The position numbers and the translations under genes are program-made. The notes under the pieces are model-generated. The model ran no database searches, was not told the DNA's origin, and saw only the letters and a program-made list of their open reading frames with translations. A DNA stretch of 27,730 nucleotides from a virus. The DNA lies in UHGV virus genome UHGV-0278671. The stretch is one strand, 5' to 3'. Below are positions 90 through 27,730 of the stretch, in pieces. The first letter of the stretch is position 1; every line of letters starts with the position of its first letter.

Positions 90-335
90 TCACTTATTTA
101 AGTGATATTGGTTGTCTGGAGATTCATGGGGCCAGTCTACTGCTCTATCAGTTATATCTTTCCCTTCATATACTTCACCTATATTGCTAATGCTGGCAGA
201 ACATCCAAGATGCTTGTATCTTATGATGTCCAACACGCAGTCACTACACAGCATCCGACCTGTTTCTTTAGAGTAAATGTATGTTTGATCAGCGTCTGAT
301 TCGCTAATGCCGCAGAAACAACATTCTTTACTCAT
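90..335 (-). CDS. Hypothetical zinc-ribbon protein (CCFCG...CSDC), sits where P22 has the antirepressor
   Basis: 81-aa ORF; ATG overlaps the stop of the upstream Arc-like ORF (ATGA), suggesting translational coupling; four Cys in a CxxC...CxxC arrangement. Function not recognised. Confidence 0.45.
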   Translation of the reverse strand: MSKECCFCGISESDADQTYIYSKETGRMLCSDCVLDIIRYKHLGCSASISNIGEVYEGKDITDRAVDWPHESPDNQYHLNK

Positions 336-472
336 ACCGTTATCCCCTCTCTCTTCAGGCTGTCCATCACCCGTTTAATTACTTCTGCACTAAATGAGCG
401 ACACTCTTCCTTTGCTTTCTCTTCAAGGATTTTTTCTAACTTCTCTGGCATACGCAGTGTTTTTACCTTCAT
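332..472 (-). CDS. arc: Arc-like ribbon-helix-helix repressor (46 aa, below the ORF-track size cutoff)
   Basis: Translation MKVKTLRMPEKLEKILEEKAKEECRSFSAEVIKRVMDSLKREGITV resembles P22 Arc as remembered; GGAGG Shine-Dalgarno 5 nt upstream of the ATG; divergent from the Mnt-like gene. Confidence 0.55.
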   Translation of the reverse strand: MKVKTLRMPEKLEKILEEKAKEECRSFSAEVIKRVMDSLKREGITV

Positions 473-502
473 TGCATCCTCCGTTGTATGTGGTACGCAT
501 AC

Positions 503-541
503 ATAGTATTTAGGTACGTATTGATAGTCAATAGATACCTA
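503..541 (-). promoter_or_regulatory. Promoter and palindromic operator of the arc-like operon
   Basis: Minus strand: -35 TTGACT (526-531), 17-nt spacer, -10 TACTAT (503-508). Near-perfect 31-bp palindrome taggtacgtattgaTagtcaatagataccta (511-541) overlaps the -35. Confidence 0.4.
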
Positions 542-577
542 CATATCCTGTGGTAAAAAATTATTCAGGATGTGCCG

Positions 578-826
578 ATGTCTGATCGTAAGTACAAAAA
601 CCCTCAAGTGAATCTGAGGCTTCCTGTAGAGATAAAGGAACGTCTTATTGAACTGGCTGAGGCTAATTCTCGTTCATTAAATGCTGAGATGGTCGCGGCA
701 CTTGAAGCGTGGACCGAAAAAAATAAACACATTCAAGCACTAGACCTTGCAACTATAGCATCACGATTGATAGATCTTGAACACGATGTTGAGACGCTAA
801 AGACCATGTATGGTAAGGATAAATAA
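578..826 (+). CDS. mnt: Mnt-like ribbon-helix-helix repressor
   Basis: NPQVNLRLPVEIKERLIELAEANSRSLNAEMVAAL aligns with P22 Mnt (FNFRMPMEVREKLKFRAEANGRSMNSELLQIV, from memory); AGGA 7 nt before ATG 578; ORF track begins at an in-frame GTG at 572. Confidence 0.7.
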   Translation: MSDRKYKNPQVNLRLPVEIKERLIELAEANSRSLNAEMVAALEAWTEKNKHIQALDLATIASRLIDLEHDVETLKTMYGKDK

Positions 827-828
827 AT

Positions 829-1107
829 ATGACAGATACCAAAGTGAACTTCAGAGAAACCATCTTCAAGGACTCAAGTGATGCTGTAAATGAGTATGCT
901 GATGGATTTGCTTACTCGTCTTTTGGGGATGTCGGAGCAAGATTTGGTTCAATAGCATTTTTTAAGCATGTTTCAGACTGGGTTAATAATGAGGAGATTC
1001 AGCCAGTTAGATACCAAATTGCCAACATTCGCATGAGTGAAAATCAACTTCTTGAACTGGCTAAGTATATAGTTTCTCAACACGAAGAATCAAAAAAATT
1101 AAGCTGA
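829..1107 (+). CDS. Hypothetical protein (92 aa), first gene downstream of mnt-like
   Basis: ORF starts 2 nt after the mnt stop; no recognisable motif. Confidence 0.45.
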   Translation: MTDTKVNFRETIFKDSSDAVNEYADGFAYSSFGDVGARFGSIAFFKHVSDWVNNEEIQPVRYQIANIRMSENQLLELAKYIVSQHEESKKLS

Positions 1108-1297
1108 CAGAGCCATGATTACTTTTCCTGCCGTAAATGCTGATCATGCAGCGGAGAAAAAGAGAACACTTGGTCGTATGGGGTCGACAGGTGGCTTCGG
1201 AGAAAAGTCCAATGCTTCGCCTCCAGTTACCAAGAATGATATAACCAAAAACAATAATATCGCTTATCTTGGAAAACAATACACTGAGGAGCATGCT

Positions 1298-1675
1298 ATG
1301 GGCAGCCCATCAAGAGAAGAGATTGACGCGAAGCTTGGTCAAAACAAAGCAGAAATTGAGTTAATATCTGCTAACATGCGCGCTGAAATTTCAGCTTTCA
1401 GAGAATTCCAATCTAAGCAATTTACAGCTATGAATCAGTCACTTAATGAAATTAAGGGACAGATATTCGCTAGCAATGGCGAAGTTGCAGGGCTCAAAGG
1501 TCAAATTGATGGCATTAAAACATCCATGACCGCGACCCAATGGCTCGTTGGTGCGGTTCTCGCTATGCTTGCGGTAATCATAACGCTTCCGCAGATTCAA
1601 TCTTACTTCAAGGTTTCTGAGCCGACTGCGAAGGAAGCCGCTAGTGAAACCCATGATACCAAAATAAAGCAGTGA
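1298..1675 (+). CDS. Membrane-anchored coiled-coil protein (XhlA-like architecture)
   Basis: GAGGA 8 nt before ATG 1298 (ORF track extends to 1115 through low-complexity sequence); heptad-like N-terminal region then a hydrophobic helix WLVGAVLAMLAVIITLP. Confidence 0.45.
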   Translation: MGSPSREEIDAKLGQNKAEIELISANMRAEISAFREFQSKQFTAMNQSLNEIKGQIFASNGEVAGLKGQIDGIKTSMTATQWLVGAVLAMLAVIITLPQIQSYFKVSEPTAKEAASETHDTKIKQ

Positions 1676-10837: not shown

Positions 10838-10902
10838 AGTTCAAGCCAGCCATTCAGCCACTCATGCTGTTCTTTGGTGAGGTTTAGTTCTCTTATGCCC
10901 AC
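10657..10902 (-). pseudogene. Q: N-terminal fragment of a Q-type late antiterminator (WGAW family)
   Basis: First ~47 residues ([47 protein letters not shown]) resemble the Q82/QuuD-family N-terminus (WGAW motif); the remainder looks like read-through and overlaps the terminase fragment. Confidence 0.45.
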
Positions 10903-11564
10903 GCGCCTTCTCCCTGTACCTGAATCAATGTGAGGTTTCCGCAGAACACTGCGCCGGTATCGATATACATCTGGTTGGCAAACTTGAGTGGTTTCACTGC
11001 TGGCGTATGACCAAAGATGAACGTGTCCGCTCCTTTGATTTCTTTCACGATCCCGTCTTGTGAGTTGCTGATTCGTTCGCGGTTCCAGATTACCTGCTGA
11101 TGGTCAACTGGCTTTCCAAATTCGTATTCGTCACAAGGATAATCGGCGTGGCAGATGACATATTTTTTACCTTCGCTCACCAGTTCGATGATTAACGGAA
11201 GTTCATCTGCTTTATGGGAAAGAGCTTTAGCCAGAATTTCTTTGTCGTAATCGAGATTAAAGAACCAGCCACCGCCATTAAACAGCCAGTGATTGACGTT
11301 TCCACGCTCTGATAAGCCATCAATCATCATTTGCTCATGGTTTCCACGTACAGCTCGGAACCAGGGGAATGTGATTAATTCCAGACATTCGACGTTCTCT
11401 GTACCGCGATCGACCAAATCGCCAACCGAGATAAGCAGGTCTTTGTTGGTGTCGAATCCTATCGTCTCCAGTTTTTTCATCAGGTTCGTGTAGCATCCGT
11501 GCAGATCGCCAACTACCCAAATAGTTCGGTATTTGCTGCCATCAATTCTTTCGTAATAGCGCAT
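10893..11564 (-). CDS. ninI: Ser/Thr protein phosphatase (lambda PP / NinI)
   Basis: Near-identical to lambda phosphatase as remembered ([29 protein letters not shown]...GDLVDRG...GNHE...), ending GEGAWA; start is the internal ATG. Confidence 0.9.
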
Positions 11565-11748
11565 CTCTTTCACTCCATCCGCGATGAACCATGAGAACGT
11601 CGTTGACGATGGCGTGCATTTTCCCGTCTTTATCATCAACGTATTTTCTGACCGTACCGCGACTACATTTCAGTCTGCGTGCTACTTCTGTCTGGTTTCC
11701 GTATGCTTCAACGAGCATGTCTGGAATGGTTTTTACTGAGAACGTCAT
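11542..11748 (-). CDS. ninH: NinH
   Basis: 68 aa [37 protein letters not shown]... matches lambda NinH as remembered. Confidence 0.85.
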
Positions 11749-12531: not shown

Positions 12532-13465
12532 CCTCCATACAAACTTTCACGAATGCCGTTGCTACTTCTGCATTGATTGCGTTTCCATATCCAATAATTC
12601 GCTGATCTTGATTGCGCTTTGCCATTCTTCCCAGTGTGGACTTGCCTCGTCCCAAGCTTTTGGCAATGCCATTAACCATCGGGAATGAGCCGGGTCTAAC
12701 TGGACGATATTTTTCATCTCTACAGTAAAGCCAGTCTGCATCTCTCCAGAAGCCGTTAACCGGTAATGGGTACATAGCTTCACCGTCCCGGGAAGTTTCA
12801 AGCAGATTCTTGGGGTTCCGCTCTTGTCTTTTCCGCTGTAGCAATGCGTTGAACCTGTTGCATCGTTCGCTAAAGGAGTTTGCCATCCCGCTAGTCTCAC
12901 GCATCCAGATAGGTTCTGAATTCCCCTGCGTGTCTCTGGCTGAAAGTTGATATTTGTCGTTGGAGTAGGCCACCCAATACAATCGCTGCCTGATGTGCGG
13001 AGAACCGAAGCCCGCAGCGCAAATATCGGTACCTGCAGAGGTGTAGTTCGCACCTTCCAAGTCAGTTTGTACAAGGTCGAGCCAAGCGAGGCCGTCTGCG
13101 CTTGCAACCTGTTCGCCAATAACGATGCCAGGATTGCATTTTTCAATAAGCCAGAAGAATGCCGGCCATAAGTGCCGCTCGTCATCAACCCCTTTTCCTT
13201 TGCCTGCCGAGCTGAAAGGTTGGCATGGGCAACTTCCTGTCCAGATACTCTTGTTGTCTGGCCATCCTGCTTTTCTAAGTGCATAGCTCCAAACTCCGAT
13301 TCCTGCAAAAAAGTGGTGCTGGGTAAATCCTCGCAAATCACCTGGTGTGACATCTTCAATACTCCTTTCATCTACATACCGTCTGTCGCTGTTGTATGCA
13401 CTGCTCAGCGGCTTTTTCCACCCACGGTCTGATATTGCTGTACGGTGGGTTATTCCAGATTGCAC
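12518..13465 (-). CDS. DNA (cytosine-5)-methyltransferase-like gene, atypical; true start uncertain
   Basis: Motif I FFAGIG, motif IV GSCPCQPFSSAGK, ENV-like IVIGEQV, motif VIII PHIRQRLYWVAY, motif X-like GYGNAINAEVATAF. Only ~25 residues separate motifs I and IV; the first ~33 codons overlap the Dam fragment; a second long ORF (12562..13371) overlaps in another frame. Confidence 0.55.
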   Translation of the reverse strand: MQSGITHRTAISDRGWKKPLSSAYNSDRRYVDERSIEDVTPGDLRGFTQHHFFAGIGVWSYALRKAGWPDNKSIWTGSCPCQPFSSAGKGKGVDDERHLWPAFFWLIEKCNPGIVIGEQVASADGLAWLDLVQTDLEGANYTSAGTDICAAGFGSPHIRQRLYWVAYSNDKYQLSARDTQGNSEPIWMRETSGMANSFSERCNRFNALLQRKRQERNPKNLLETSRDGEAMYPLPVNGFWRDADWLYCRDEKYRPVRPGSFPMVNGIAKSLGRGKSTLGRMAKRNQDQRIIGYGNAINAEVATAFVKVCMEVVNA

Positions 13466-13652
13466 CGTGGCTTATCCACTCAGAATTTAGCGCGTCGTCG
13501 GCCTCAGTTAACCAGTGAGCGCACAGAGCATTTTTGTCGCTCGCTGCCGAATCCAGCCAGAATCCAAACTCAATATCCAGTGCATCAAAAAGCCAAAGCG
13601 GCGTTTGCCAGCAGTCCTTGTCGTGTGCTGGCGTATTTGATTTGATAGTCAT
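13368..13652 (-). pseudogene. Phage Dam-type N6-adenine methyltransferase, N-terminal fragment
   Basis: DKDCWQTPLWLFDALDIEFGFWLDSAAS...WNNPPYS matches the phage Dam family pattern; the ORF stops ~25 codons after NPPY; ATG overlaps the ninB stop (ATGA). Confidence 0.55.
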
Positions 13653-14089
13653 GCAGCCCGATCTCCCCATCTCGCTTTCCACTCCAGAGCCAGTCTCGCT
13701 TCGTCTGACCACTTAACGCCACGCTCTGTACCGAATGCCTGTATAAGCTCTAATAGCTCCGCAAATTCGCTTACACGCATCCTGCTGGTTGACTGGCCTA
13801 TTACCACAAAGCCATTCCCGGCAAGGTTAGGAACAACGTCCTGCTGCTTTAATGCTGCGGTAAACACACACTTCCAGCTTTCTGCATCCAGCCAACGCCC
13901 ATGCCATTCAACCTGACGAGAGACGTCACCAAGGCAAGCCCAAAGCTTTCGATTCTGGTCTAAGCTGCGGTTGCGCTCCTGAATGATCACTACGATTGGC
14001 TTGGTTGGGTCTGGAAGGATTTGCTGTACCGCGTGAATAGCGTTTTGCTGATGTGCCGGAGATCGAATTTCAAAGGTTAGTTTTTTCAT
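13649..14089 (-). CDS. ninB: NinB recombination protein
   Basis: 146 aa from the internal ATG (MKKLTFEIRSPAHQQNAIHAVQQILPDPTKPIVV...), near-identical to lambda NinB as remembered. Confidence 0.9.
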   Translation of the reverse strand: MKKLTFEIRSPAHQQNAIHAVQQILPDPTKPIVVIIQERNRSLDQNRKLWACLGDVSRQVEWHGRWLDAESWKCVFTAALKQQDVVPNLAGNGFVVIGQSTSRMRVSEFAELLELIQAFGTERGVKWSDEARLALEWKARWGDRAA

Positions 14090-17889: not shown

Positions 17890-18606
17890 ATGGAAAATAA
17901 AAAATCACTGACGACAGAACAGCTCGAAGACGCTAAGCGGCTTAAGGCTTTGTATGAGTCAAAAAAGAAAGAATTGGGGATAACCCAATACTCAATCGCT
18001 GATGAACTGGGTATCACCCAAGGAGCGGTAGGGCATTATCTTAATGGCAGAAACGCGCTAAACGTTGAGGTTGCATCTGGTTTTGCACGACTGTTGCAAG
18101 TCTCAATTGCTGATTTTAGCCAGTCAATTGCTGCCAAGGTTGCAGAACAGGCAGAAAGCCTTAAGAGCGATGCCAACGTAAGGTATGCAGGGGAATACAG
18201 AGCAGGAAAGAGGTATCCGGTGTTAAGCAGTATCCAGGCTGGCTCGTGGTGTGAAGCATGCGAACCATACACCATTAAAGACATAGATGTTTGGCTTGAG
18301 TCTGACGCGCATATTCAAGGTAATGCGTTCTGGCTTAAAGTGGAAGGTGATTCAATGACGGCACCGGTTGGGTTAAGCATTCCAGAGGGAACATTCGTTC
18401 TTTTCGATACCGGAAGGGAGGCGATCAACGGCAGCTTGGTCATAGCAAAACTTTCTGACTCTAACGAAGCAACATTCAAGAAGCTGATAATCGACGGCGG
18501 AAATAAATACCTTAAGGGACTTAATCCTGCATGGCCTCTCGTGCCAATCAATGGAAACTGCAAGATTATAGGCGTTGCAATTGAGACAAAACTAAGGCTG
18601 GTTTGA
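17890..18606 (+). CDS. cI: CI repressor (HTH plus LexA-like self-cleaving C-terminal domain)
   Basis: N-terminus LTTEQLEDAKRLKALYESKKKELGITQ and HTH; C-terminal FWLKVEGDSMTAP...FKKLI matches lambda CI FWLEVEGNSMTAP...FKKLI (catalytic Ser/Lys context). Confidence 0.9.
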   Translation: MENKKSLTTEQLEDAKRLKALYESKKKELGITQYSIADELGITQGAVGHYLNGRNALNVEVASGFARLLQVSIADFSQSIAAKVAEQAESLKSDANVRYAGEYRAGKRYPVLSSIQAGSWCEACEPYTIKDIDVWLESDAHIQGNAFWLKVEGDSMTAPVGLSIPEGTFVLFDTGREAINGSLVIAKLSDSNEATFKKLIIDGGNKYLKGLNPAWPLVPINGNCKIIGVAIETKLRLV

Positions 18607-18623
18607 TCACGCAAGGGGCGATT

Positions 18624-18992
18624 ATGGTTGGAACCGCTATAGCAAGCTTTTTTGGGATGTTGGCAATCTCGACAATTTACGGCTTAGCGCATGCTTTTAT
18701 TGCGAAATCTCTATCAGAAAAAATAAGCCAGGCTTGGGCGCATAGATCAGCTCGTTTCATGATTCTAGTGATCATAGCAATACAAGGGATATCTGCATTT
18801 ATCCTCTATGGTTCAAGCTTATACCTGTTGTATCAAGGCGCGACATTTACGCCTTACACCAGTGATTACGGAACTCTATACGATGGTAGTGAAGACATCT
18901 CTATGGCTTGGATTGTCTTTGGTTTATCTATGGCCGTGTCTGTTGTAGCAGATATCATTAAGGTAATTCTCGTCTTAACCTTCGCTGACTAA
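18624..18992 (+). CDS. Polytopic inner-membrane protein co-transcribed with cI (rexB/sieB position)
   Basis: AAGGGG 6 nt before ATG 18624, 18 nt after the cI stop; about four hydrophobic helices in 122 aa; no similarity to lambda RexB recognised. Confidence 0.55.
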   Translation: MVGTAIASFFGMLAISTIYGLAHAFIAKSLSEKISQAWAHRSARFMILVIIAIQGISAFILYGSSLYLLYQGATFTPYTSDYGTLYDGSEDISMAWIVFGLSMAVSVVADIIKVILVLTFAD

Positions 18993-19123
18993 CCTATAAT
19001 CCCGGCAGCAATAGCTATCGGGATCCACTTCACATATCCCGCATAAAAAGCACTGAACAAGCAGACACCGAAAAAATAAATATCCTTTGTATTCATTTAC
19101 TTATCATTATTTCATCAAAAATA

Positions 19124-19165
19124 AATACCTTGGGTATTTACACAATAAAATACCTACAGTATTCT
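19124..19165 (+). promoter_or_regulatory. OL operators overlapping pL
   Basis: Perfect operators AATACcttggGTATT (19124-19138) and AATACctacaGTATT (19149-19163); -35 TTTACA 19137-19142, 17-nt spacer, -10 TATTCT 19160-19165. Confidence 0.6.
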
Positions 19166-19211
19166 TTAGCCATCAGCAGGACGCTGGTAGCCAAACGGAA
19201 CATATTGGCAG

Positions 19212-19252
19212 GCTCTTTAACATTGATGGGATTGTCCCGCCGAAATGCGGGA
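19212..19252 (+). promoter_or_regulatory. nutL: boxA GCTCTTTAACA plus boxB hairpin
   Basis: boxA 19212-19222 matches the rrn-type boxA consensus; boxB tcccgccgaaatgcggga 19235-19252 (5-bp stem CCCGC/GCGGG), identical to nutR. Confidence 0.6.
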
Positions 19253-19359
19253 ACCAAAGAGTAGTTGGCTTTGGGGTGACGTGAAGTGCAGCTGCACGAC
19301 GGCAACCGGAAGATAAGCACCCGGCGCGTCACCTCCAAAGTCAATCATCGGAGATCAAC

Positions 19360-19632
19360 ATGACAGTAGTCATTACATATCTGGCTGACGATAACACCAG
19401 AAATCGCCGCAGAGCACGCAGACAGGCTCAACGTGAACAGGCAATGCAAGAGCAGCGACTGGCGCGAAAAATTGCGCTAAAGCTCTCTGGTTGCGTCAGA
19501 GCAGACAAAGCAGCATCACTCGGAAGCCTTCGCTGCAAGAAGGCAGATGAATGCAGTGGAAGTATTTGCCTGCCAGAAGTTGCGCTTTTCGCAGCTGGTC
19601 ATCGTACAAGTAAGCAGGTTACAGCGAGGTAA
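19360..19632 (+). CDS. N: N-type antitermination protein
   Basis: Arginine-rich motif NTRNRRRARRQAQREQ near the N-terminus; C-terminus LPEVALFAAGHRTSKQVTAR resembles P22 gp24 as remembered; first gene after pL/nutL. Confidence 0.75.
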   Translation: MTVVITYLADDNTRNRRRARRQAQREQAMQEQRLARKIALKLSGCVRADKAASLGSLRCKKADECSGSICLPEVALFAAGHRTSKQVTAR

Positions 19633-19635
19633 GTG

Positions 19636-19860
19636 ATGAATCAGACATACATTCCATCATGCTTGAGAAATCTGCCAAAGCAGAAAGCAAAGCCCCGCAA
19701 GCAAGCCATAAAGGACGCTAAGGCAGAGGTTATTGATCAAGCAATACAATTGCTCAGGGAGGAGTTAAGAAGTGGCAAGCTCGAAGGAATGATGATGCCC
19801 TATCAGCGCGGATATCTATCGGCGATTAGTAAGTTGGAAGTATTGAAGAGTGAATTATGA
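19636..19860 (+). CDS. Hypothetical protein (74 aa)
   Basis: Starts immediately after the N stop; GAGG 7 nt before ATG 19636. Confidence 0.4.
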   Translation: MNQTYIPSCLRNLPKQKAKPRKQAIKDAKAEVIDQAIQLLREELRSGKLEGMMMPYQRGYLSAISKLEVLKSEL

Positions 19861-19922
19861 ACTATCTGGAATTTCCGGATGGTTCATTGTTTTGGCAGCA
19901 AACCACTTATTTGAGGTGAGAT

Positions 19923-20393
19923 ATGACAAAATCATGGAGCGTACCTTTTCCTGAATCAGAAACTGAACATGATGGAATGCCTGTTTTCTGGAGATTCCAG
20001 GCGACAGTTGAAGAAGATGGGATAAAAATATTCGCACTTCAATATATAGCTTTTCATCAGACAGAGCATTATGCATGGTTGGTTCCTGCGCATTGGATTG
20101 TTAATTTTAAACCAGCACCAAATCAGTGGTTACAGGAATGGAAACAAAGGAGAAATAGATATGCAATTAAGAAAGTAGCAAAAAATGCAGAAAGATCTTT
20201 TGCATTCCCAACGAAGAAACTTGCCATTGAGAGTTTATTGCGCCGGAAGAAATACCATTTAATGAGAATCAAACAAGATTTGGCTGTTGTATCAACTCTT
20301 GTTGATGGGATGAAGAATATTGATACATCAACACCAGATATTGAATATAACTTTGGACACAACCAAGAAACAGAAAATTGGGTATTCTACTAG
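19923..20393 (+). CDS. Hypothetical protein (156 aa) in an AT-rich segment
   Basis: GAGGTGAG before the ATG; visibly lower GC than neighbouring genes; no recognisable motifs. Confidence 0.5.
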   Translation: MTKSWSVPFPESETEHDGMPVFWRFQATVEEDGIKIFALQYIAFHQTEHYAWLVPAHWIVNFKPAPNQWLQEWKQRRNRYAIKKVAKNAERSFAFPTKKLAIESLLRRKKYHLMRIKQDLAVVSTLVDGMKNIDTSTPDIEYNFGHNQETENWVFY

Positions 20394-20626
20394 GACGCAT
20401 AGTCGGCCTTTATTTTTGGCATAAACAACAGAATAAATACTGCACTGTGTATTCATTCCAACGAGTGAATACACGGAGCAATGTCGCTCGTAACTAAACA
20501 GGAGCCGACTTGTTCTGATTATTGGAAATCTTCTTTGCCCTCCAGTGTGAGGGCTTTTTTATATGCATACCAATAACGCTTCACTCGAGGCGTTTTCGTT
20601 ATGCAATCAAACAGAAGGAGCATCCT

Positions 20627-20797
20627 ATGCAACAGTTCGCTATTGCAGGGGCGGCATCGGTTCGCCCTTTCAACCCGATTTTATCGGTACAGCATTCACG
20701 AAAAAACATTCTAACCGGAGCAGACTTTAAACAACCAAGAATGAAAAGTTTGCTCGAAAAGCTTTGGGATATTTTGAAACAACAAGGCCGCCCATGA
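20627..20797 (+). CDS. cIII: CIII-like protein (FtsH inhibitor)
   Basis: 56 aa MQQFAIAGAAS...LLEKLWDILKQQGRP resembles lambda CIII (MQYAIAGWPVAG...WKRLIDILNQPG); AAGGAG 6 nt before the ATG. Confidence 0.65.
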   Translation: MQQFAIAGAASVRPFNPILSVQHSRKNILTGADFKQPRMKSLLEKLWDILKQQGRP

Positions 20798-20952
20798 GTT
20801 TTACAGATAACTGGTCAGACGAAGAATTCATTCGTCAGATGAAAGAATTAATCGGTAACGAAGGAGATATTCATGTCACTTGCAACCACAGTGAAGGAGA
20901 GCAAGTTACAGAGACGCATGTACACGCAGAAAGCTCTCTGGTATCGCCATAA
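20794..20952 (+). CDS. Small hypothetical protein (52 aa) at the kil/arf position
   Basis: ATG overlaps the cIII stop (ATGA). Confidence 0.35.
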   Translation: MSFTDNWSDEEFIRQMKELIGNEGDIHVTCNHSEGEQVTETHVHAESSLVSP

Positions 20953-21051
20953 TGGCGACCGCGAAGGAATGCGGGTATGCCTTAATTTGTCCCGAGTCGA
21001 AGTATTAAATCAGCGTTATTTCCTTGGGCCGTGTCCATTCTGAGGTGAATT

Positions 21052-21759
21052 ATGGATTTGAACAAATTCGATGAGCCATTCAGCCCTGAAGATATCGAAT
21101 GGCGAATACAGCAAAGCGGTAAAACACGCGATGGCAAAGTGTGGGCTATGGTGCTGGCTTATGTCACGAACCGGGCAATCATGAAACGCCTGGACGATGT
21201 TTGCGGCAAAGCAGGATGGCGCAATGAATACCGCGATATTCCCAACAACGGCGGCGTTGAATGCGGCATATCAATAAAGATTGATTCCGAATGGGTAACC
21301 AAATGGGATGCTGCTGAAAACACGCAGGTAGAAGCCGTCAAAGGTGGTCGTTCCGGTGCAATGAAGCGCGCTGCCGTTCAGTGGGGAATCGGTCGGTATC
21401 TGTATAACCTTGAGGAAGGTTTCGCACAAACATCTCTCGATAAAAAGCAGGGGTGGCACAGGGCAAAACTCAAGGATGGAACAGGATTTTACTGGCTCCC
21501 TCCATCGCTGCCGGGATGGGCAATCCCAGCATCAGATAACAAACCATCACCAGAAAGTACCAACCAGAAATCTCCATCGGTTGACTGCGAGAAAATCCTG
21601 AAAGACTTCAGCGATTATGCGTCAACAGAAACTGACAAGAAAAAACTCATCGAGCGTTATCAGCGTGACTGGCAATTAATGGCTGGCAATGAGGATGCGC
21701 AGGCTAAATGCGTTCAGGTAATGAACATCAGAGTTAACGAGCTAAAACAGGCGGCATAA
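21052..21759 (+). CDS. Single-strand annealing protein: Rad52/Sak-like N-terminus fused to an Erf-like C-terminal domain
   Basis: N-terminal region resembles Rad52-family annealing proteins; C-terminus YASTETDKKKLIERYQRDWQLMAGNEDAQAKCVQVMNIRVNELKQAA matches the P22 Erf C-terminus as remembered. Confidence 0.75.
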   Translation: MDLNKFDEPFSPEDIEWRIQQSGKTRDGKVWAMVLAYVTNRAIMKRLDDVCGKAGWRNEYRDIPNNGGVECGISIKIDSEWVTKWDAAENTQVEAVKGGRSGAMKRAAVQWGIGRYLYNLEEGFAQTSLDKKQGWHRAKLKDGTGFYWLPPSLPGWAIPASDNKPSPESTNQKSPSVDCEKILKDFSDYASTETDKKKLIERYQRDWQLMAGNEDAQAKCVQVMNIRVNELKQAA

Positions 21760-22233
21760 ATGGCAAGCAGAGGCGTAAATAAGGTGATCATTATTGGTCG
21801 CCTTGGGCATGATCCAGAAATCAGATATTCACCATCAGGAACGGCATTTGCAAACCTTACAGTTGCTACGTCAGAACAATGGCGTGATAAGCAAACTGGA
21901 GAGCAAAAGGAGCAGACGGAGTGGCACCGTGTGGTAATGAGCGGGAAACTGGCAGAAATTGCCAGCGAGTATCTGCGGAAAGGCTCAGAGGTTTATCTTG
22001 AAGGCAAATTGCGGACAAGAAAATGGCAGGATCAAAGTGGACAGGATCGGTTCACTACCGAAGTTATCGTAGGCGTTGGTGGAACCATGCAAATGCTTGG
22101 TGGCAAGCAAGGAGGCAATGAACAGTCTTCACCTCAGCGAAATAACGGTCAGCAACAAAGACAGCAACCTCAGCAGCATGGAAATCACAGCGAACCACCT
22201 ATGAACTTCGACGATTCGGATATTCCGTTCTAG
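21760..22233 (+). CDS. ssb: Single-stranded DNA-binding protein
   Basis: [23 protein letters not shown]...TEWHRVV...LRTRKW... near-identical to E. coli SSB as remembered; acidic tail ending DSDIPF. Confidence 0.9.
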
Positions 22234-22242
22234 GAGCTGAAT

Positions 22243-22722
22243 ATGAAAATCTGCTCAAGATGCCATCAACAGAAGGAAGAAAGGGACTTTCAAATCAGAA
22301 GAGCATCCAGAGATGGATTAACTGCCGCTTGCCGGGCTTGCCTGGCTGAATATGACAAAGAGCGCGCGGGATTGCCACATCGAGTATCAGCAAGGAGAGA
22401 ATATCAATCATCGGAACGCGGCAGAGAACGGTGTAACGCAGCCAAAAAGCGGTTCATTCAGAGCAACCCATGGAAAAGAAAAGCCCACATCATCGTGGGT
22501 AATTTTTTGCGCGACGGTAAGCTAATCCGACCACCACAATGTGAGTGCTGCGGATCAGAATGTAAACCACAGGCGCACCACTGCGACTACAGCAAACCAA
22601 CCGATGTGATGTGGCTCTGCAAGTCATGTCATGTCGAGTGGCACAAACATAACAAACCTATCTACCCAGACGAGGAGCCAGTAACTCTCCCCTTCCCTCG
22701 TCACGCTATTCACGCAATTTAA
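22243..22722 (+). CDS. HNH-family endonuclease-like protein with N-terminal Cys cluster
   Basis: CSRCH...CRAC and C-terminal QAHHCDYSKPTDVMWLCKSCHVEWH fit a zinc-bound HNH motif. Confidence 0.55.
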   Translation: MKICSRCHQQKEERDFQIRRASRDGLTAACRACLAEYDKERAGLPHRVSARREYQSSERGRERCNAAKKRFIQSNPWKRKAHIIVGNFLRDGKLIRPPQCECCGSECKPQAHHCDYSKPTDVMWLCKSCHVEWHKHNKPIYPDEEPVTLPFPRHAIHAI

Positions 22723-22730
22723 GGACTTAC

Positions 22731-23279
22731 ATGAATCACTTGATGGTTGACCTTGAAACAATGGGCAACGGGCCATACGCGCCAGTTATTTCTATTGGGG
22801 CGGTATTCTTTGACCCGAATACCGGAGAAACAGGAGAAGAGTTCTCGGTAAATATCTCGCTTGAGTCATCAATGCGATATCGGGCGCGTCCTGACGCTTC
22901 AACGATTTTATGGTGGCTGGAACAGAGTGAAGAAGCCAGAAAATCGCTAACCAGCAACATTCAGGAGCTTTCAACGGCTCTTTCATGGTTATCTGAATTC
23001 ATCATAAAGAACGCTAACCACAAATTCGTTCAGGTTTGGGGGAATGGAGCATCATTTGACTGCGTTATTCTCCGAAACAGTTATTCGCTGACAGGGCAGC
23101 CAGTTCCATGGCAGTGGTGGAATGACCGCGACGTAAGAACAATCGTCGAGCTTGGAAAGGTAATAGGATTCGACCCTAAGCGAGATATGCCATTCAAAGG
23201 AACTCGCCACAACGCTCTTGATGATGCCATTCACCAAGCCAAATACGTTTCAGCGATCTGGAAAAAGTTAGCTAAATAA
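22731..23279 (+). CDS. DnaQ-like 3'-5' exonuclease
   Basis: DEDDh-type motifs: MVDLET (Exo I), FDCVILRN (Exo II-like), HNALDDA (Exo III). Confidence 0.65.
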   Translation: MNHLMVDLETMGNGPYAPVISIGAVFFDPNTGETGEEFSVNISLESSMRYRARPDASTILWWLEQSEEARKSLTSNIQELSTALSWLSEFIIKNANHKFVQVWGNGASFDCVILRNSYSLTGQPVPWQWWNDRDVRTIVELGKVIGFDPKRDMPFKGTRHNALDDAIHQAKYVSAIWKKLAK

Positions 23280-23295
23280 TCAACAGGAGAAAACC

Positions 23296-23589
23296 ATGCC
23301 AGCGCCTCTGTATGGTGCGGATGACGCGCGCCGCTGTTCCGGCAATTCCGTATCGGAGGTGCTGGATAAATTCAGAAAAAACTACGATCGGATAATGTCG
23401 CTACCGCAGGAAACGAAAGAGGAAAAGGAATTTCGCCACTGTATATGGCTTGCAGAGAAAGAAGAACGCGAGCGAATTTACCAGACATCAATCCGACCAT
23501 TCCGCAAAGCCACATATACCCACTTCCCTGAAATTGACCCGCGCCTGCGTAATTACCGCTCACGCTATGGTGCTATCAGTAATGACTGA
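23296..23589 (+). CDS. Hypothetical protein (97 aa)
   Basis: AGGAG before the ATG; no recognised motifs. Confidence 0.45.
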
Positions 23590-23599
23590 GGAATTTACC

Positions 23600-23767
23600 A
23601 TGAGAGGACTTGCATACAATCCCGGCATTCTTCCGGCAGAAATGATTATTCGCCAACGCGTAAAGCCAATGCCATCGAGAGAGGAATTGCTTAAGAGAAA
23701 TAGTTTCGGTTCTGTTAATGACAACAAATATCTGAATGCAATGTGGCGCAAAGGAGGCAAGCAGTGA
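23600..23767 (+). CDS. Small hypothetical protein (55 aa)
   Basis: GAGGA 8 nt before ATG 23600; stop overlaps the next gene's GTG start. Confidence 0.3.
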
Positions 23768-24354
23768 GCAACATCGACAAACAGGCGCAGCGTAAAGCAA
23801 AGGTAATCACAAAGGAATTTGTTGAGGAACACCTTCACTACGATGGGAAGGATTTTTTCTGGAAGAAGCGCGAACCAAGTTCGTTTTCTGACAGCCGCAC
23901 ATGCAAGGTTTGGAATACTCGAATTGCAGGGAAGCGGGCCGGAGGAATCAGCGCTCAAGGTTATGTAGAAATTCAAATCAAAGGGAGTCGATATAAGGCT
24001 CATAGATTAGCGTGGTGTCTTGTTCATGGCGATATACCAACAGACATGCAGGTTGATCACATTAACCACGACCGAACTGATAACCGAATAGAGAATCTGC
24101 GCCTTGTTGATAATCAGGGAAACCAAAAGAACTCTTCGATACGAAAGGACAACATTGGAGGCTGCACAGGTGTTACCTGGAATCCTAGCCATAAAAGATG
24201 GATTGCCTACATACGCGAAAATGGTAAGCACAAGCACATTGGTAGCTTCATTAAATTCTCTGATGCTGTAAGAGCAAGAGAGGAAGCTCAGGCAAGGCTT
24301 GGATTCCACATGAATCACGGCGCCGCTGGCATTCGCATCAAAGGAGGTGAGTAA
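23764..24354 (+). CDS. HNH homing-endonuclease-like protein with C-terminal AP2-type DNA-binding domain
   Basis: [36 protein letters not shown] (HNH motif); C-terminal [27 protein letters not shown] (AP2-like); AAGGAGG 6 nt before GTG 23764. Confidence 0.65.
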
Positions 24355-24530
24355 TGCGTGTGGCATTTTTCGGCTTGTTACCGTACCCGACTCGTTTTTG
24401 GGCTTCTGCGCTAATTGCAAAGCCACAGGTCCTGATGGCTGACAACATCACCCCAGCACCAAAGCGCCGCCATACCGGTATTGCAGCTGCACGGCGCGCA
24501 GTAAAGAAACGCAGGAGAGCAAAACGATGA
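24354..24530 (+). CDS. Small basic protein (58 aa), below the ORF-track cutoff
   Basis: AGGAGG 6 nt before the ATG, which overlaps the HNH stop (TAATG); hydrophobic N-terminus and Arg/Lys-rich C-terminus. Confidence 0.3.
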   Translation: MRVAFFGLLPYPTRFWASALIAKPQVLMADNITPAPKRRHTGIAAARRAVKKRRRAKR

Positions 24531-24718
24531 AAAACCGTAAAGCAAAGATGCTTATTTCCCGTGTATACAGCCGTTGCTATCCCAGCCAGTGGTTGAGAGT
24601 TAGCAATCGCCGTATGGTGTTGTACTTATATTCTGGAATTGCCAGAGAGGGAATCAAAGATAAGCCCAGCGCAGCGCAAAACCGCTGGAAAAACCACTTG
24701 CGCACTAAAGGAGAGTAA
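24527..24718 (+). CDS. Small basic hypothetical protein (63 aa)
   Basis: ATG overlaps the upstream stop (ATGA). Confidence 0.35.
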   Translation: MKNRKAKMLISRVYSRCYPSQWLRVSNRRMVLYLYSGIAREGIKDKPSAAQNRWKNHLRTKGE

Positions 24719-24719
24719 T

Positions 24720-24938
24720 GTGCCAACATTATTCAGAAAAGAATATCCGCGAAGAAGTCGAATAACAGAACTCCTGTTTATCATTCTGTTTATCGTGTTG
24801 ATGATACCGATAAACCTGCTGTTTCTGGTTTGGATAATCGGAAAAATATTTGAGCCGATTGTTGAATTGTATATCGATATGACATGGGAACCATTCAGGG
24901 CGCTACACAATAAAATTAATCCGTATAAGGAAAGCTGA
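24720..24938 (+). CDS. Small single-pass membrane protein (72 aa)
   Basis: GTG start with AAGGAGAG upstream; hydrophobic helix LLFIILFIVLMIPINLLFLVWIIG. Confidence 0.35.
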   Translation: MPTLFRKEYPRRSRITELLFIILFIVLMIPINLLFLVWIIGKIFEPIVELYIDMTWEPFRALHNKINPYKES

Positions 24939-24939
24939 T

Positions 24940-25203
24940 ATGGCAACTTTGACAAAAAAAGAACAGGCATGGTTGAACGAATTACAGGAAGTTCTTGATC
25001 GCTGTCCATCACCGAAAAAAATTGGTTTTTACACCATTGGCGATAAAAGCATTTACCTGTATGACCTGCGCCGCATGGATGAAATCATGGAGGCTCTTGA
25101 TAATCGTTCGTCGATGGATTGGTGTGTTGCTGTCCATGATATGAATGCAGGGTTTGATGAAAAGATTTTGTTCCCCTCATCAGTTGAAAGCACTGCGGGT
25201 TAA
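24940..25203 (+). CDS. Hypothetical protein (87 aa)
   Basis: AAGGAAAG before the ATG; starts 2 nt after the upstream stop. Confidence 0.45.
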   Translation: MATLTKKEQAWLNELQEVLDRCPSPKKIGFYTIGDKSIYLYDLRRMDEIMEALDNRSSMDWCVAVHDMNAGFDEKILFPSSVESTAG

Positions 25204-25213
25204 GGAGTAACAC

Positions 25214-25999
25214 ATGACCACTATTACCAAAGAACGTATCGAATTGTTCATTAAATCCCCGCTTGAAAACGGGCTTACCCGTGGCGAACAAATGGAAGTG
25301 GCACGGATTGCTTTGGCATCACTGGAAGCAGATCCTATTGGTGAAGTTTCAGAGAAGCGATACGGCCTTATTATGGATGGAACGGTAGACCTTGGCGGGA
25401 AATCAACTTATCGCATCATTAAGGGAGAAAAAGCGATGAAGTTGTTTCCGCTGGGGACGAAGTTTTATACCGCCCCGCCAGCGCCGGTATCTGTGCCCGC
25501 TGCGATGGAAATTGATGATGACTTTGACAGCGCGTTTGAACACGGAAAAGCTGTCGGCTGGAACGCCTATCGCGCCGCCATGCTTCAGGCCGAACCTGTA
25601 AGTAATAGTGATGAGTTACCGCTGGACTATCTGCAAGGACACAAAGACGGCCTGGAGTGGGCTGCACAATTGGCAGAAGCCAATCATCCGCAAACAGGTG
25701 ACTGGTTGTACGACGACCAAATCGATCTTGCCAGGGCGATTCGCAAAGGTCCGGATATGCCTACTGTTCAGGGTGGCAACTCTCCGGTAACTCCGGATGG
25801 TTGGATAAGCTGTAGTGATCGAATGCCGGAAGACACCAAAATGTTACTGGCATTTAGTCAAGGTGAAATCGTGGCCGCATATTGGAACTGGGTTGTAAAT
25901 CCAATTGATTACAAAAAATATAGAGCTTTCACGTATTTATCAGGAAATATCTTGGATGACGTAACTCACTGGATGCCGCTACCAGAGCCTCCACTTTGA
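25214..25999 (+). CDS. Hypothetical protein with DUF551-like C-terminus
   Basis: AAGGAG before the ATG; C-terminal W-rich segment ending THWMPLPEPPL is typical of DUF551 phage proteins (from memory). Confidence 0.55.
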   Translation: MTTITKERIELFIKSPLENGLTRGEQMEVARIALASLEADPIGEVSEKRYGLIMDGTVDLGGKSTYRIIKGEKAMKLFPLGTKFYTAPPAPVSVPAAMEIDDDFDSAFEHGKAVGWNAYRAAMLQAEPVSNSDELPLDYLQGHKDGLEWAAQLAEANHPQTGDWLYDDQIDLARAIRKGPDMPTVQGGNSPVTPDGWISCSDRMPEDTKMLLAFSQGEIVAAYWNWVVNPIDYKKYRAFTYLSGNILDDVTHWMPLPEPPL

Positions 26000-26095
26000 A
26001 AGCGAAGCTTATACATATCTTTTACATCAGCAATCTATTGTTAATCTCCAATCAATGTTACGTTGTCATCTCTCTCATGCTTTGGAGGTAGTGAT

Positions 26096-26275
26096 ATGTC
26101 TTGTCCAAAATGCGGTTCTGGAAATATTGCAAAAGAAAAAACAATGCGTGGATGGTCTGATGATTATGTGTGCTGCGATTGCGGATACAACGACTCTAAA
26201 GACGCATTTGGAGAGCGTGGTAAAAACGATTTTGTCAAAATTAATAAAGAACGCGAAGGCAACGAAAAAAGCTAA
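26096..26275 (+). CDS. Small zinc-ribbon protein (59 aa)
   Basis: GGAGG 6 nt before ATG 26096; CPKCGSG...CCDCG pairs. Confidence 0.4.
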   Translation: MSCPKCGSGNIAKEKTMRGWSDDYVCCDCGYNDSKDAFGERGKNDFVKINKEREGNEKS

Positions 26276-26338
26276 TTTATTTATTCATATATGAAAACAA
26301 TGTAACCAATATTCGAATTGAAGAACTGAAAGAACACC

Positions 26339-26364
26339 AAGCCGCCTGATGGCGGTTTCTTTTT
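26339..26364 (+). terminator. Candidate Rho-independent terminator at the end of the early-left operon
   Basis: GCCGCC-TGAT-GGCGG hairpin followed by TTTCTTTTT. Confidence 0.4.
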
Positions 26365-26379
26365 GCCTGGAGAATTAAG

Positions 26380-26571
26380 ATGACCGATACCAGCCTGATT
26401 CCTGAGAAAGAAGTGATGAACAAGCTCGGTGTTTCATCACGTCAGACAATCTGGAACTATACCAAACGGCACGGATTTCCGAAGCCAGTCAGAACCCACC
26501 CCAAATCATACCTTCGTGAAGCTGTTGAGGGGTGGATTCTTAACGGTGGCGTTAATCAGAAATGCTCCTGA
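26380..26571 (+). CDS. alpA: AlpA-family regulator/excisionase
   Basis: 63 aa with HTH KEVMNKLGVSSRQTIWNYTKRHGFPKP typical of the AlpA/Xis family; GGAG before the ATG. Confidence 0.65.
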   Translation: MTDTSLIPEKEVMNKLGVSSRQTIWNYTKRHGFPKPVRTHPKSYLREAVEGWILNGGVNQKCS

Positions 26572-27730
26572 TGTGCCAGAACAATTTATCAGCGTGAAGC
26601 TCATACGCTTTGCGCTGAGCCTCTATCCAGTCGTGTTTATTGTATACGGACATTATCCCGCCAAGTTCATGACCGAGCATTCGCTCAGTAACATGAGGCT
26701 CGACATTCATCTCGGACAGACGTGTAACAAGCGTTCTTCTGAAATCGTGTGTTCGCCAGTAACCTAGATCCATCCCTCCCCTTATTCTATTTACGAATCG
26801 GTTGGCTGCAGCGATGCTGATCGGTTTGTTTATGTCTTCTCCAGGGAAAAGAACATCATTGTACGTTGTCATGGCCTTTTCGAGGAAAGGCTTAATTTGT
26901 TCGAAGATTGGACGGCGGATAACATTACCCATCTTGCTATGCTCTTTCGGTACGGTCCATACGTTTTCCAGCAGGTCAAATTCTGTCTTTTTTGCCAGCC
27001 TAAGCTCTGAGAGCCTCGCCCCCCACAGCATAAGCATCTGATGAAGTAGCTTATTTGACGTAGACGCACGGCTTCTTTCAATAGCAAGCCAAATCTTAGC
27101 CAGTTCGTGATACGACAGTACCCGATCCCCTACCTCAGCGCGGGAGCCGAAGTCCCTTGGTTGGATGCTCATAATTGCGCAACTATCTATCAACTGACGC
27201 CGCATGCACCAACTTATTGCTGATCTTAGTTGACTTAGCACCTGCCTTGCTCGGCGTGGATTATCTTTTTCTTCTTCGGTAAGCAGGTCAACCCATTGCT
27301 TAACCGTGATAGAAGATGCCGGACGATTAGGAAAGGCGTCATGCATGCGCTTCATAACCGTTGATCGGTAAAGTGCCTGGGTCTTTTCTCTGAGAGTTGT
27401 AGAGACGTAGTTGTCGAACCAGTAGTCGAGACACTGGGCGACCGTCATGGAGTTCTCCACCTTCTCTTCAAAATAAGTGCGTGGATCCGTTCCTGAGAAA
27501 TAGAGCTTTCGCAAGTCAGCAGTGATCTGTCTGGCATCCTTCAAAGACAGGGATGGGTATCGACCAAGCCCAAGTCGATTAGGCTTGCCATGCCAGCGAT
27601 AGCGGTACTGGAACTGGATGACCCCCTTCGGTGAAATTCGTACGCTGAGGCCATCGGCATCAGCCACTTCTTGTGGGCCCGAATATGGTTTACCATAAAT
27701 AGTACGCAGTTTTGTGTCGCTTATAGCCAT
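26552..27730 (-). CDS. int: Tyrosine-type site-specific integrase (P4-like arm-binding N-terminus)
   Basis: 392 aa; N-terminal LRTIYGKPYSGPQEVADADGLSVRISPKGVIQFQYRYRWHGK; C-terminal catalytic residues in HDFRRT...LGHE...YNKHDW; start codon is the last three bases of the window. Confidence 0.9.
   Translation of the reverse strand: MAISDTKLRTIYGKPYSGPQEVADADGLSVRISPKGVIQFQYRYRWHGKPNRLGLGRYPSLSLKDARQITADLRKLYFSGTDPRTYFEEKVENSMTVAQCLDYWFDNYVSTTLREKTQALYRSTVMKRMHDAFPNRPASSITVKQWVDLLTEEEKDNPRRARQVLSQLRSAISWCMRRQLIDSCAIMSIQPRDFGSRAEVGDRVLSYHELAKIWLAIERSRASTSNKLLHQMLMLWGARLSELRLAKKTEFDLLENVWTVPKEHSKMGNVIRRPIFEQIKPFLEKAMTTYNDVLFPGEDINKPISIAAANRFVNRIRGGMDLGYWRTHDFRRTLVTRLSEMNVEPHVTERMLGHELGGIMSVYNKHDWIEAQRKAYELHADKLFWHIRSISD

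Follow-up and report, generated by a model that had tools for sequence, protein, structure and literature searches.

The closest described relative of the module considered here is that of the Shiga-toxin phage Phi24B (vB_EcoP_24B, HM208303), in which int is inverted relative to its λ counterpart, its promoter has been mapped by 5′-RACE and is unaffected by CI overproduction, and an ORF at the int 3′ end, needed together with Int for excision, has been validated as the excisionase Xis (Fogg et al., NAR 2011; PMC3064807). The two Phi24B genes (int 236..1405 on the + strand, xis 1389..1571 on the − strand) are convergent and overlap by 17 bp, and xis has been proposed to be under pL/CI control (PMC3064807). 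A similar transcriptional uncoupling of int from the gene for its recombination directionality factor (RDF) is seen in the IntS–TorI systems of KplE1 (CPS-53), HK620 and Sf6, where the int promoter overlaps the att region, predicting negative autoregulation (Panis et al., PLoS Genet 2010; PMC2951348); unlike the present case, the KplE1 prophage has intS at one end and torI at the other, and the attachment site is the tRNA gene argW. The xis and int of the SXT/R391 ICE are likewise two convergent genes that form no operon (PMC4344509), although these are conjugative elements under SetCD control and the likeness is one of description rather than of protein comparison.

Two classical systems differ more clearly. 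CP4-57 of E. coli K-12 also pairs a small helix-turn-helix (HTH) protein of the AlpA/excisionase superfamily with a P4-type integrase, but its alpA is co-directional with intA and lies ~1.2 kb downstream, with yfjH between, and the role ascribed to AlpA is activation of intA transcription. In λ, as predicted here, xis is distal in an N-antiterminated pL operon, whereas λ int lies downstream of xis in the same orientation, is transcribed from pL as well as pI and is subject to retro-regulation by sib; since int is inverted at the present locus, this pL/pI/sib logic is not applicable. The λ xis and int genes also overlap by 20 bp, which is a coincidence.

Our analysis of a 27,730-nt stretch of viral DNA (UHGV-0278671; hereafter the window) identifies at its right end an ordinary integration/excision unit of a λ-like E. 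coli prophage in sbcB. This unit is very probably of the Phi24B ‘inverted integrase’ type, with xis as the last gene of the pL operon and int expressed separately from the att side. A small HTH ORF and an integrase ORF converge and share 20 bp at their 3′ ends (Table 1), the int stop codon TAA falling within Xis codons Val58–Asn59 (GTT AAT), and a GC hairpin with a T-tract ends exactly 15 nt (26365–26379) before the small-ORF ATG. Overlap and hairpin had both been pointed out in a sequence-only reading of this DNA, and all of its coordinates were reproduced. That reading also took the layout to be unusual; convergent overlap is instead the norm in this integrase family and is already published, the terminator–xis–int arrangement being known from the sequences of several phages and, in the related Phi24B, from experiment.

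Table 1. Features of the predicted early-left operon and of the xis–int module, in window coordinates
Feature	Coordinates	Strand	Basis
CI-like repressor gene	17890..18606	+	phrog_4 transcriptional repressor, E = 3.4e-49
pL-like promoter, TTTACA-17-TATTCT, amid palindromic operator-like sequences; putative start of the operon whose last gene is xis	19137..19165	+	sequence scan
nutL-like site (putative)	19212..19252	+	resemblance to lambdoid nut sites
N-like antitermination protein gene	19360..19632	+	phrog_271, E = 1e-30
Predicted intrinsic terminator, last of the early-left (pL) operon	26339..26364	+	fold, relatives, HK140 annotation
xis ribosome-binding site, GGAGAA	26369..26374	+	inside conserved GCCTGGAGA block of relatives
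xis, 63-aa predicted winged-helix RDF (probable excisionase)	26380..26571	+	ATG start; homology to Phi24B Xis
Tail-to-tail xis/int coding overlap, 20 bp	26552..26571	both	coordinates read from ORFs
int, 392-aa P4-type tyrosine integrase	26552..27730	−	PF13356, PF00589, phrog_1

The int ATG begins at the final base of the window (27730), and no obvious Shine–Dalgarno sequence was seen before int. The encoded protein has arm-binding, SAM-like and catalytic domains (PF13356, E = 8e-18; PF00589, E = 1.1e-16), matches phrog_1 (E = 3.8e-74) and is 56% identical to Phi24B Int across 391 residues, that is, over its full length (E = 4e-170). Its gene is ~99% identical at the DNA level to int of Sf101, HK140 and mEp234, and Int targets sbcB. 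The whole module, comprising terminator, xis, int and attP, is ~99% the same DNA in HK140, mEp234, HK544, Sf101 and the Stx2c phages 2851 and 1717, and these sbcB-integrating relatives differ only upstream of the hairpin, where their early-left regions are mosaic. Terminator, AlpA-family gene, convergent int and attP are all annotated already in the HK140 GenBank record; the small gene does not go by the name xis in records of sbcB-integrating phages, which list it as hypothetical or AlpA-family. With Phi24B the module shares a P4-type Int and a small Xis, probably of winged-helix fold, a xis gene in the direction of the pL operon, a GC hairpin upstream of it and GTACA-type repeats just upstream of int. 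It differs in the length of the overlap (20 bp against 17 bp in Phi24B), in the start codon of int (TTG in Phi24B) and in the integration target, Phi24B using another and being described as promiscuous in site choice. Stx2 phage 86 is grouped with Phi24B as the closest Int/Xis module.

As the sequence-only reading had stated, the att site and the int promoter fall outside the window. Beyond the window sbcB follows int after 181 bp, and a core, TTTCACGATTACG, is common to K-12 attB, the prophage junction and HK140 attP, in agreement with the published 13-bp sbcB att core (PMC4159516). The attachment site lies in the 5′ end of sbcB rather than in a tRNA gene, which the sequence-only reading had named as a frequent location, and Rfam and tRNA scans of the window, which found nothing, likewise argue against a tRNA site. 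HK140 attP contains five TTTGGTACRC repeats, of which three lie no more than 55 bp from the int ATG and two are on the other arm. A standard promoter scan returned no sigma-70 site at threshold upstream of int or in 25900–27730; a relaxed scan of the near-identical locus L001 gave a 9-point candidate, TTTACT-18-TGtGATATT, ending 52 nt upstream of the int ATG. In both L001 and HK140 three of the TTTGGTACRC repeats sit between this promoter-like site and the start codon.

Database labels for the 63-aa protein read ‘AlpA family’ or ‘HTH regulator’, and its gene had initially been called alpA. Within the Phi24B-type reading, which we regard as highly probable as a whole, homology argues that the protein is an excisionase and not an activator of the CP4-57 AlpA kind. 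It is 47% identical to Phi24B Xis over ~58 residues (E = 4e-19), as opposed to 29% to K-12 AlpA (E = 0.028), and matches phrog_66, ‘excisionase and transcriptional regulator’ (E = 1.9e-8). The name ‘AlpA activator’ is probably a mislabel, the score against Pfam Phage_AlpA (PF05930; 17.8 bits, E = 0.0032) lying below the gathering threshold of 21 bits. A relationship to the AlpA superfamily is nevertheless likely, since four of ten Xis-family homologues match PF05930 at E ≤ 0.01 (best 2.5e-6). An AlphaFold2 model (pLDDT 82.8) has a β-H-H-β-H layout (E6–8, H9–16, H21–31, E43–45, H46–54), for which the best Foldseek matches, all weak (TM 0.5–0.6, E ≥ 0.026), are RacA, BldC, CarH, MerR-family proteins and Pukovnik Xis. 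Sequence searches of the PDB were marginal (E = 0.27 with the single sequence, 0.027 with a profile), and hhalign of the Xis family against TorI revealed no detectable sequence similarity (probability 0.3%).

It is very unlikely that the small protein acts mainly by activating or repressing int, in the manner of CP4-57 AlpA, rather than as an architectural excisionase. The weak PF05930 matches of the protein and of its relatives would be in keeping with such a role, as would its best PDB match, 8c3t, an ‘AlpA family phage regulatory protein’; moreover, RDFs can regulate int, TorI being a repressor of intS (PMC2951348), and the two roles are compatible. Against this stand the sub-threshold score, the low identity to K-12 AlpA, the excisionase function of the nearest characterised homologue, Phi24B Xis, and the presence of several proven RDFs within the Phage_AlpA family (PMC3064807). 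The layout is also unlike that of CP4-57, with convergent in place of co-directional and widely spaced genes, which bears out the earlier suggestion that control here would differ from that of alpA and intA. The sequence-only reading had added the proviso that the ORF might be mis-called; that it is non-coding is a notion with which its shortness and the finding that NCBIfam has no model matching the protein are compatible. It is effectively refuted, and we give it almost no credence: amino-acid identity is 42–100% across 75 loci, G56, G57 and N59 are invariant across the family alignment, the ribosome-binding site is strong, the fold is predicted with confidence and a homologue has been validated experimentally.

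Gene order places xis in what appears to be a CI-controlled early-left operon. Upstream of xis on the same strand lie the CI-like gene, the pL-like promoter, the N-like gene and recombination genes, the + strand early-left set comprising CI-like, N-like, Erf, SSB, Abc2 and CIII-like genes. The nutL-like site combines a boxA-like element, GCTCTTTAA (19212–19220), with a boxB-like hairpin, TCCCGC-CGAAAT-GCGGGA (19235–19252). Five terminator-like sites besides the one before xis are present on the + strand of the early-left region. An operon that ends with xis and has an N-like antiterminator, a nutL-like site and several terminators fits the ‘read-through’ that the sequence-only reading had put forward.

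The hairpin itself (26339–26358, AAGCCGCC-TGAT-GGCGGTTT) has an eight-pair stem with five G–C pairs, a 4-nt loop and a folding energy of −13.0 kcal/mol, and is followed by the tail CTTTTT, with the T-tract reaching 26364, an architecture typical of intrinsic terminators. By single-sequence statistics it is only modestly unusual (z = −1.89 in a 55-nt window; 7 of 200 shuffles fold as well). Comparison with relatives is more telling, because six unrelated stem sequences occupy the same position, ahead of the conserved TTCTTTTTGCCTGGAGA, and retention of the position despite six different stems argues that the hairpin is a genuine terminator. Each of the six variants is then followed by TTCTTTTTGCC; these observations come from folds of the individual sequences in place of a formal covariation count, MAFFT having been unable to align the unrelated stems in structural register. 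The HK140 record annotates the identical site as a rho-independent terminator, and Phi24B has an analogous hairpin, CCGCC-ttcg-GGCGG, ~40 nt from the xis start codon and with a weaker T-tract than here. In some related clades the hairpin is missing or lacks a T-tract, so that not every xis gene of the family is preceded by a terminator. A second + strand hairpin, at 26873–26892 inside int, was considered as a terminator of the xis transcript and rejected as probably due to chance: it encodes KPFLEKAM of Int, and the aligned Phi24B residues, EPYIERLL, would not preserve it.

Conservation of the overlap was surveyed in 80 sequences (the window and 79 viral loci), 75 of which contain a Xis homologue. 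The tail-to-tail overlap is kept in 72 of these 75 loci, and thus is not a product of chance; its length is 14, 17, 20 or 23 bp, always 3n + 2. The 20-bp overlap of the window is an inherited, frame-fixed feature of the family, as the int stop sits inside the conserved GG[VI]N codons of Xis and the fixed register is readily ascribed to common descent. In one surveyed locus a 2-bp gap replaces the overlap, and in another (L036) a gene co-directional with int has been inserted after int and overlaps xis by 13 bp.

Could the overlap instead be a regulatory device? In such a scheme the int transcript would continue antisense through xis as far as the hairpin and silence leaky xis expression in lysogens, and antiterminated pL transcription after induction would in turn run antisense to int and lower Int. 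Transcriptional interference or RNase III cleavage of the duplex are two ways in which Int might be lowered. Retention of the overlap and of its register (72 of 75 loci) is what such a device would predict, and on the − strand no terminator-like site other than a weak 5-bp stem (26395–26382) separates the int stop from the hairpin. The − strand tail beyond the hairpin is moderately T-rich in the window (CTTGGTGTTCTTT), in one clade (L028–L033) only the int-direction side carries a T-rich tail, and the gene inserted in L036 again overlaps xis; the Phi24B paper discusses neither overlap nor antisense transcription nor terminators (PMC3064807). The register, however, is explained more simply by descent, the locus with a 2-bp gap dispenses with the overlap, and in several stem variants the int-direction flank is A-rich or G-rich, so that the hairpin is not bidirectional in them. 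On balance we consider a regulatory role for the overlap unlikely. The fuller proposal, that overlap and terminator form a convergent-transcription switch in which constitutive int transcription silences xis while induced pL transcription runs antisense over int and attL, and possibly sense into the phage-rebuilt sbcB, lowering Int and altering the expression of host exonuclease I, seems to us quite improbable. We are similarly doubtful that the hairpin is merely the terminator of the accessory gene that precedes it (eag or a moron nearby) at a mosaic boundary, with no part in the control of xis. Homology between phages does break off close to this point, at 26302 in HK140 and, within the hairpin, at 26349 in Stx phages, and in many E. 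coli prophages eag and xis are separated by an additional ORF of 345 bp. Nonetheless, the right arm, T-tract and ribosome-binding site stay with xis–int whether eag, a λ ea8.5-like gene or the extra ORF lies upstream, the analogous hairpin precedes Phi24B xis, and any transcription entering xis must pass a terminator placed 15 nt ahead of the start codon, whatever the origin of that terminator.

Under the favoured Phi24B-type reading, the operon would run from a CI-controlled pL through the nutL-like site, the N-like gene and several terminators to xis as its last gene. In a repressed lysogen no pL transcription would arrive and stray transcripts from upstream accessory genes would be halted by the hairpin, so that no Xis would be made; upon induction, we infer that N-modified RNA polymerase passes the hairpin and Xis is produced. 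The int gene would be transcribed in the opposite direction from a promoter of its own, located in att sequence just outside the window, and hence independently of CI and pL; the promoter-like site of L001 is our candidate for its exact position. Int probably limits its own synthesis through the arm-type TTTGGTACRC repeats, given that three of them lie between this site and the int ATG, and a precedent for autoregulation is known where the promoter of int and att overlap (PMC2951348). A low level of Int would be made constitutively, and excision would be switched by Xis alone. Xis activity, a mapped int promoter and CI-independence are properties demonstrated in the literature for the Phi24B homologue only, and would extend to the sbcB module by analogy. 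The Q-to-terL segment has apparently been lost from this prophage, and the module may consequently no longer be under selection in its host.

These results imply that the gene labelled ‘alpA’ or ‘HTH regulator’ at the sbcB locus in thousands of E. coli genomes is better read as an excisionase gene, a renaming that covers the sbcB-integrating lambdoid prophages, including the Stx2c phages. Beyond correct annotation the module is of little wider importance; in Shiga-toxin phages, convergent transcription over the overlap may perhaps fine-tune the balance of Int and Xis and thereby the stability of the prophage.

The overlapping convergent gene pair at the end of the window, together with the hairpin that precedes it, is a real feature, and the sequence-only reading had described it correctly to the single base, from the 20-bp overlap to the hairpin 15 nt before the ATG (counted from the end of the T-tract at 26364). 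By homology, the large ORF encodes a tyrosine integrase of the P4 type (Arm-DNA-bind_3, E = 8e-18; Phage_integrase, E = 1.1e-16; phrog_1, E = 3.8e-74). The small ORF had been taken for an AlpA-type activator, a reading that is poorly supported, although a recombination directionality factor (RDF) may modulate the int promoter as well. The match to Pfam Phage_AlpA is sub-threshold (17.8 vs 21 bits), and the protein shares just 29% identity with K-12 AlpA (E = 0.028), as against 47% with Xis of the Stx phage Phi24B, whose Int is 56% identical to that of the window. The match to HTH_17 is also sub-threshold, while phrog_66 ('excisionase and transcriptional regulator') is matched at 1.9e-8. An AlphaFold2 model (pLDDT 82.8) has a beta-helix-helix-beta-helix order, and its top structural matches are weak, MerR-like winged-helix domains and mycobacteriophage Pukovnik Xis among them. 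That the ORF might be mis-called, as had also been considered, is excluded by its conservation among relatives.

Coordinates of the int-xis module and of early-left control elements in the window
Feature	Position	Strand	Remark
CI-like repressor	17890-18606	+	
pL-like promoter	19137-19165	+	
nutL-like boxA/boxB	19212-19252	+	
N-like antiterminator	19360-19632	+	
Hairpin AAGCCGCC-TGAT-GGCGGTTT	26339-26358		T-tract to 26364
Ribosome-binding site GGAGAA of small ORF	26369-26374	+	
Small ORF (xis)	26380-26571	+	63 aa
Overlap of small ORF and int	26552-26571		20 bp
Large ORF (int)	26552-27730	-	392 aa, ATG at the window's final base

Taken alone, the hairpin (-13.0 kcal/mol) is only mildly exceptional (z = -1.89, 55-nt window). 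In all close relatives a hairpin stands immediately before the conserved TTCTTTTTGCCTGGAGA, upstream of xis, with folding energies among relatives of -7 to -15.7 kcal/mol and unrelated stems (CCGCC/GGCGG, CCGCT/GGCGG, GCCCTC/GAGGGC, GCCCGGC/GCCGGGC, CCCGGC/GCCGGG and GCCGC/GCGGT); a position kept with unrelated stems is the mark of a terminator structure under selection. In more distant clades the hairpin has a weak T-tract or none, or is missing altogether. In many E. coli prophages eag and xis are separated by an additional ORF of 345 bp, with the xis-int overlap intact and a variant terminator stem, CCGCT-ATAT-GGCGG. This gene, encoding a 114-aa hypothetical protein (777-1121 in the related locus L088, and present in Sf101; equivalent window site near 26300-26340), has the appearance of a moron-type insert at the edge of the module. 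Within int, an antisense + strand hairpin about 300 nt downstream of xis (GGCCTTTTCGAGGAAAGGCT then TAATTTGTT, 26873-26892) was rejected as probably a chance match, because the Int residues that it encodes, KPFLEKAM, differ in Phi24B Int.

Scanning IMG/VR with the integrase gave 79 loci (20-99% identity), and in 75 of the resulting 80 sequences, window included, a Xis homologue lies on the opposite strand. The two genes overlap tail to tail in 72 of these 75, by 14, 17, 20 or 23 bp and always 3n+2, a register fixed because Xis has a conserved GG[VI]N motif whose Val/Ile-Asn codons contain the int stop codon. A 2-bp gap separates the genes in one locus, and two loci (L036 and L040) have a gene of ~830 bp inserted after int and before xis. 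The insert examined, that of L036 (2684-3529), is a 281-aa ORF co-directional with int that starts 2 nt past its stop and overlaps the 3' end of xis by 13 bp, which suggests that int transcripts normally run beyond the int stop. It is possible that the overlap constitutes a functional antisense or convergent-transcription layer; however, common descent explains the fixed register more simply, and several of the hairpin variants are not bidirectional.

The attachment site had been placed beyond the window, and extension past 27730 located its core at sbcB. The last 1.8 kb of the window is matched in 2,588 of 5,426 complete E. coli genomes, and in the top match (99.7% identical) int is followed by 181 bp and then sbcB. 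When the unoccupied sbcB site of K-12 was aligned with the prophage junction and with attP of phage HK140, a common core emerged, TTTCACGATTACG, the reverse complement of the published 13-bp CGTAATCGTGAAA (phages 2851 and Sf101). The phage supplies a replacement sbcB 5' end, MTDTDKQPTFLFHDY for the K-12 original MMNDGKQQSTFLFHDY. Integration there also brings new upstream DNA (7832-8058 in the near-identical locus L001, a stretch just past window position 27730), so that the lysogen retains an intact gene for exonuclease I whose promoter region comes from the phage; as sbcB is co-directional with the pL operon, antiterminated transcription might in principle extend into it. HK140 attP contains five TTTGGTACRC direct repeats, by sequence typical arm-type sites, three no more than 55 bp from the int start codon and the remaining two on the opposite arm. 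In the promoter search proposed upstream of int, the standard scan found nothing at threshold; a relaxed scan gave a candidate, TTTACT-18-TGtGATATT, ending 52 nt upstream of the ATG, which would place the three repeats in the int 5' leader.

This feature is the normal recombination module of sbcB-integrating lambdoid phages, sequenced and annotated before. Its int-xis DNA is 98.8-99.5% identical in HK140, mEp234, APC_JM3.2, Sf101 and many Stx1/Stx2 phages, and the HK140 GenBank record annotates a rho-independent terminator, an 'AlpA family regulatory protein', a convergent overlapping integrase and a putative attP. Experiments have established the regulatory logic in a homologous module, that of Phi24B, where int (236..1405, +) and xis (1389..1571, -) are also convergent, overlapping by 17 bp rather than 20 bp, and where a hairpin, CCGCC-ttcg-GGCGG, likewise lies upstream of xis. 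In Phi24B, int has the opposite orientation to that in lambda. Its transcription start was located by 5'-RACE; lysogens express it, and surplus CI does not repress it. Excision is impossible with Int alone, excisionase activity comes from the small ORF next to the 3' end of int, distantly related to PF05930 by HHpred, and the authors proposed that pL/CI control still applies to xis (Fogg et al., PMC3064807). That study makes no mention of the overlap, antisense effects or a terminator. In KplE1, where the int promoter overlaps att, both Int and the RDF repress that promoter (Panis et al., PMC2951348), and xis and int are convergent in SXT/R391 elements too (PMC4344509).

The window comprises a lambdoid prophage whose virion genes are of the Sf6/P22 kind. 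On the + strand the N-like gene is followed by CIII-like, Erf, SSB, exonuclease, Abc2, HNH endonuclease, DUF551 and Eag genes, the hairpin and the small ORF; five further + strand terminator-like sites lie between pL and the hairpin, as expected where an operon relies on N antitermination. The - strand carries CII-like, O-like, primase/helicase and nin genes. No complete E. coli genome in the collection holds at least 80% of the 8.7-kb early-left region (19000-27730) in one place (best coverage 61%, at 97.9% identity); this early-gene mosaic is thus absent from the collection, though the int-xis end occurs very often. A gene for a predicted 129-aa membrane protein (18603-18992, +; phrog_6534, function unknown) is co-directional with the CI-like gene, overlaps its stop codon and resembles lysogen-expressed rex- or sie-type genes in position. 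In the nin region, two neighbouring, slightly overlapping - strand ORFs (13368-13712 and 12562-13371) each have matches to DNA methyltransferase families and may represent one methylase gene that was split or frameshifted. Homology to Sf6-like phages (NinG, NinH, NinI, start of Q) ends at ~10752, and within 55 bp after the NinI-like phosphatase gene (10893-11639) lies a 323-aa ORF matching only the C-terminal part of large terminase (region 9866-11639, junction near 10752-10893). Q, the lysis genes and the small terminase appear deleted, and the prophage is therefore probably defective.

A pL-operon xis with a separately promoted int is the best-supported reading. Gene identity, layout and conservation are direct observations; Xis activity and independence of the int promoter were demonstrated in Phi24B and would be carried over from there. 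We infer that xis is the distal gene of an N-antiterminated pL operon, N reading through the hairpin terminator, which would stop any transcription not antiterminated, and that Int is probably self-limited via its arm sites. With int expressed from its own att-side promoter independently of CI, Xis by itself would turn the reaction to excision.
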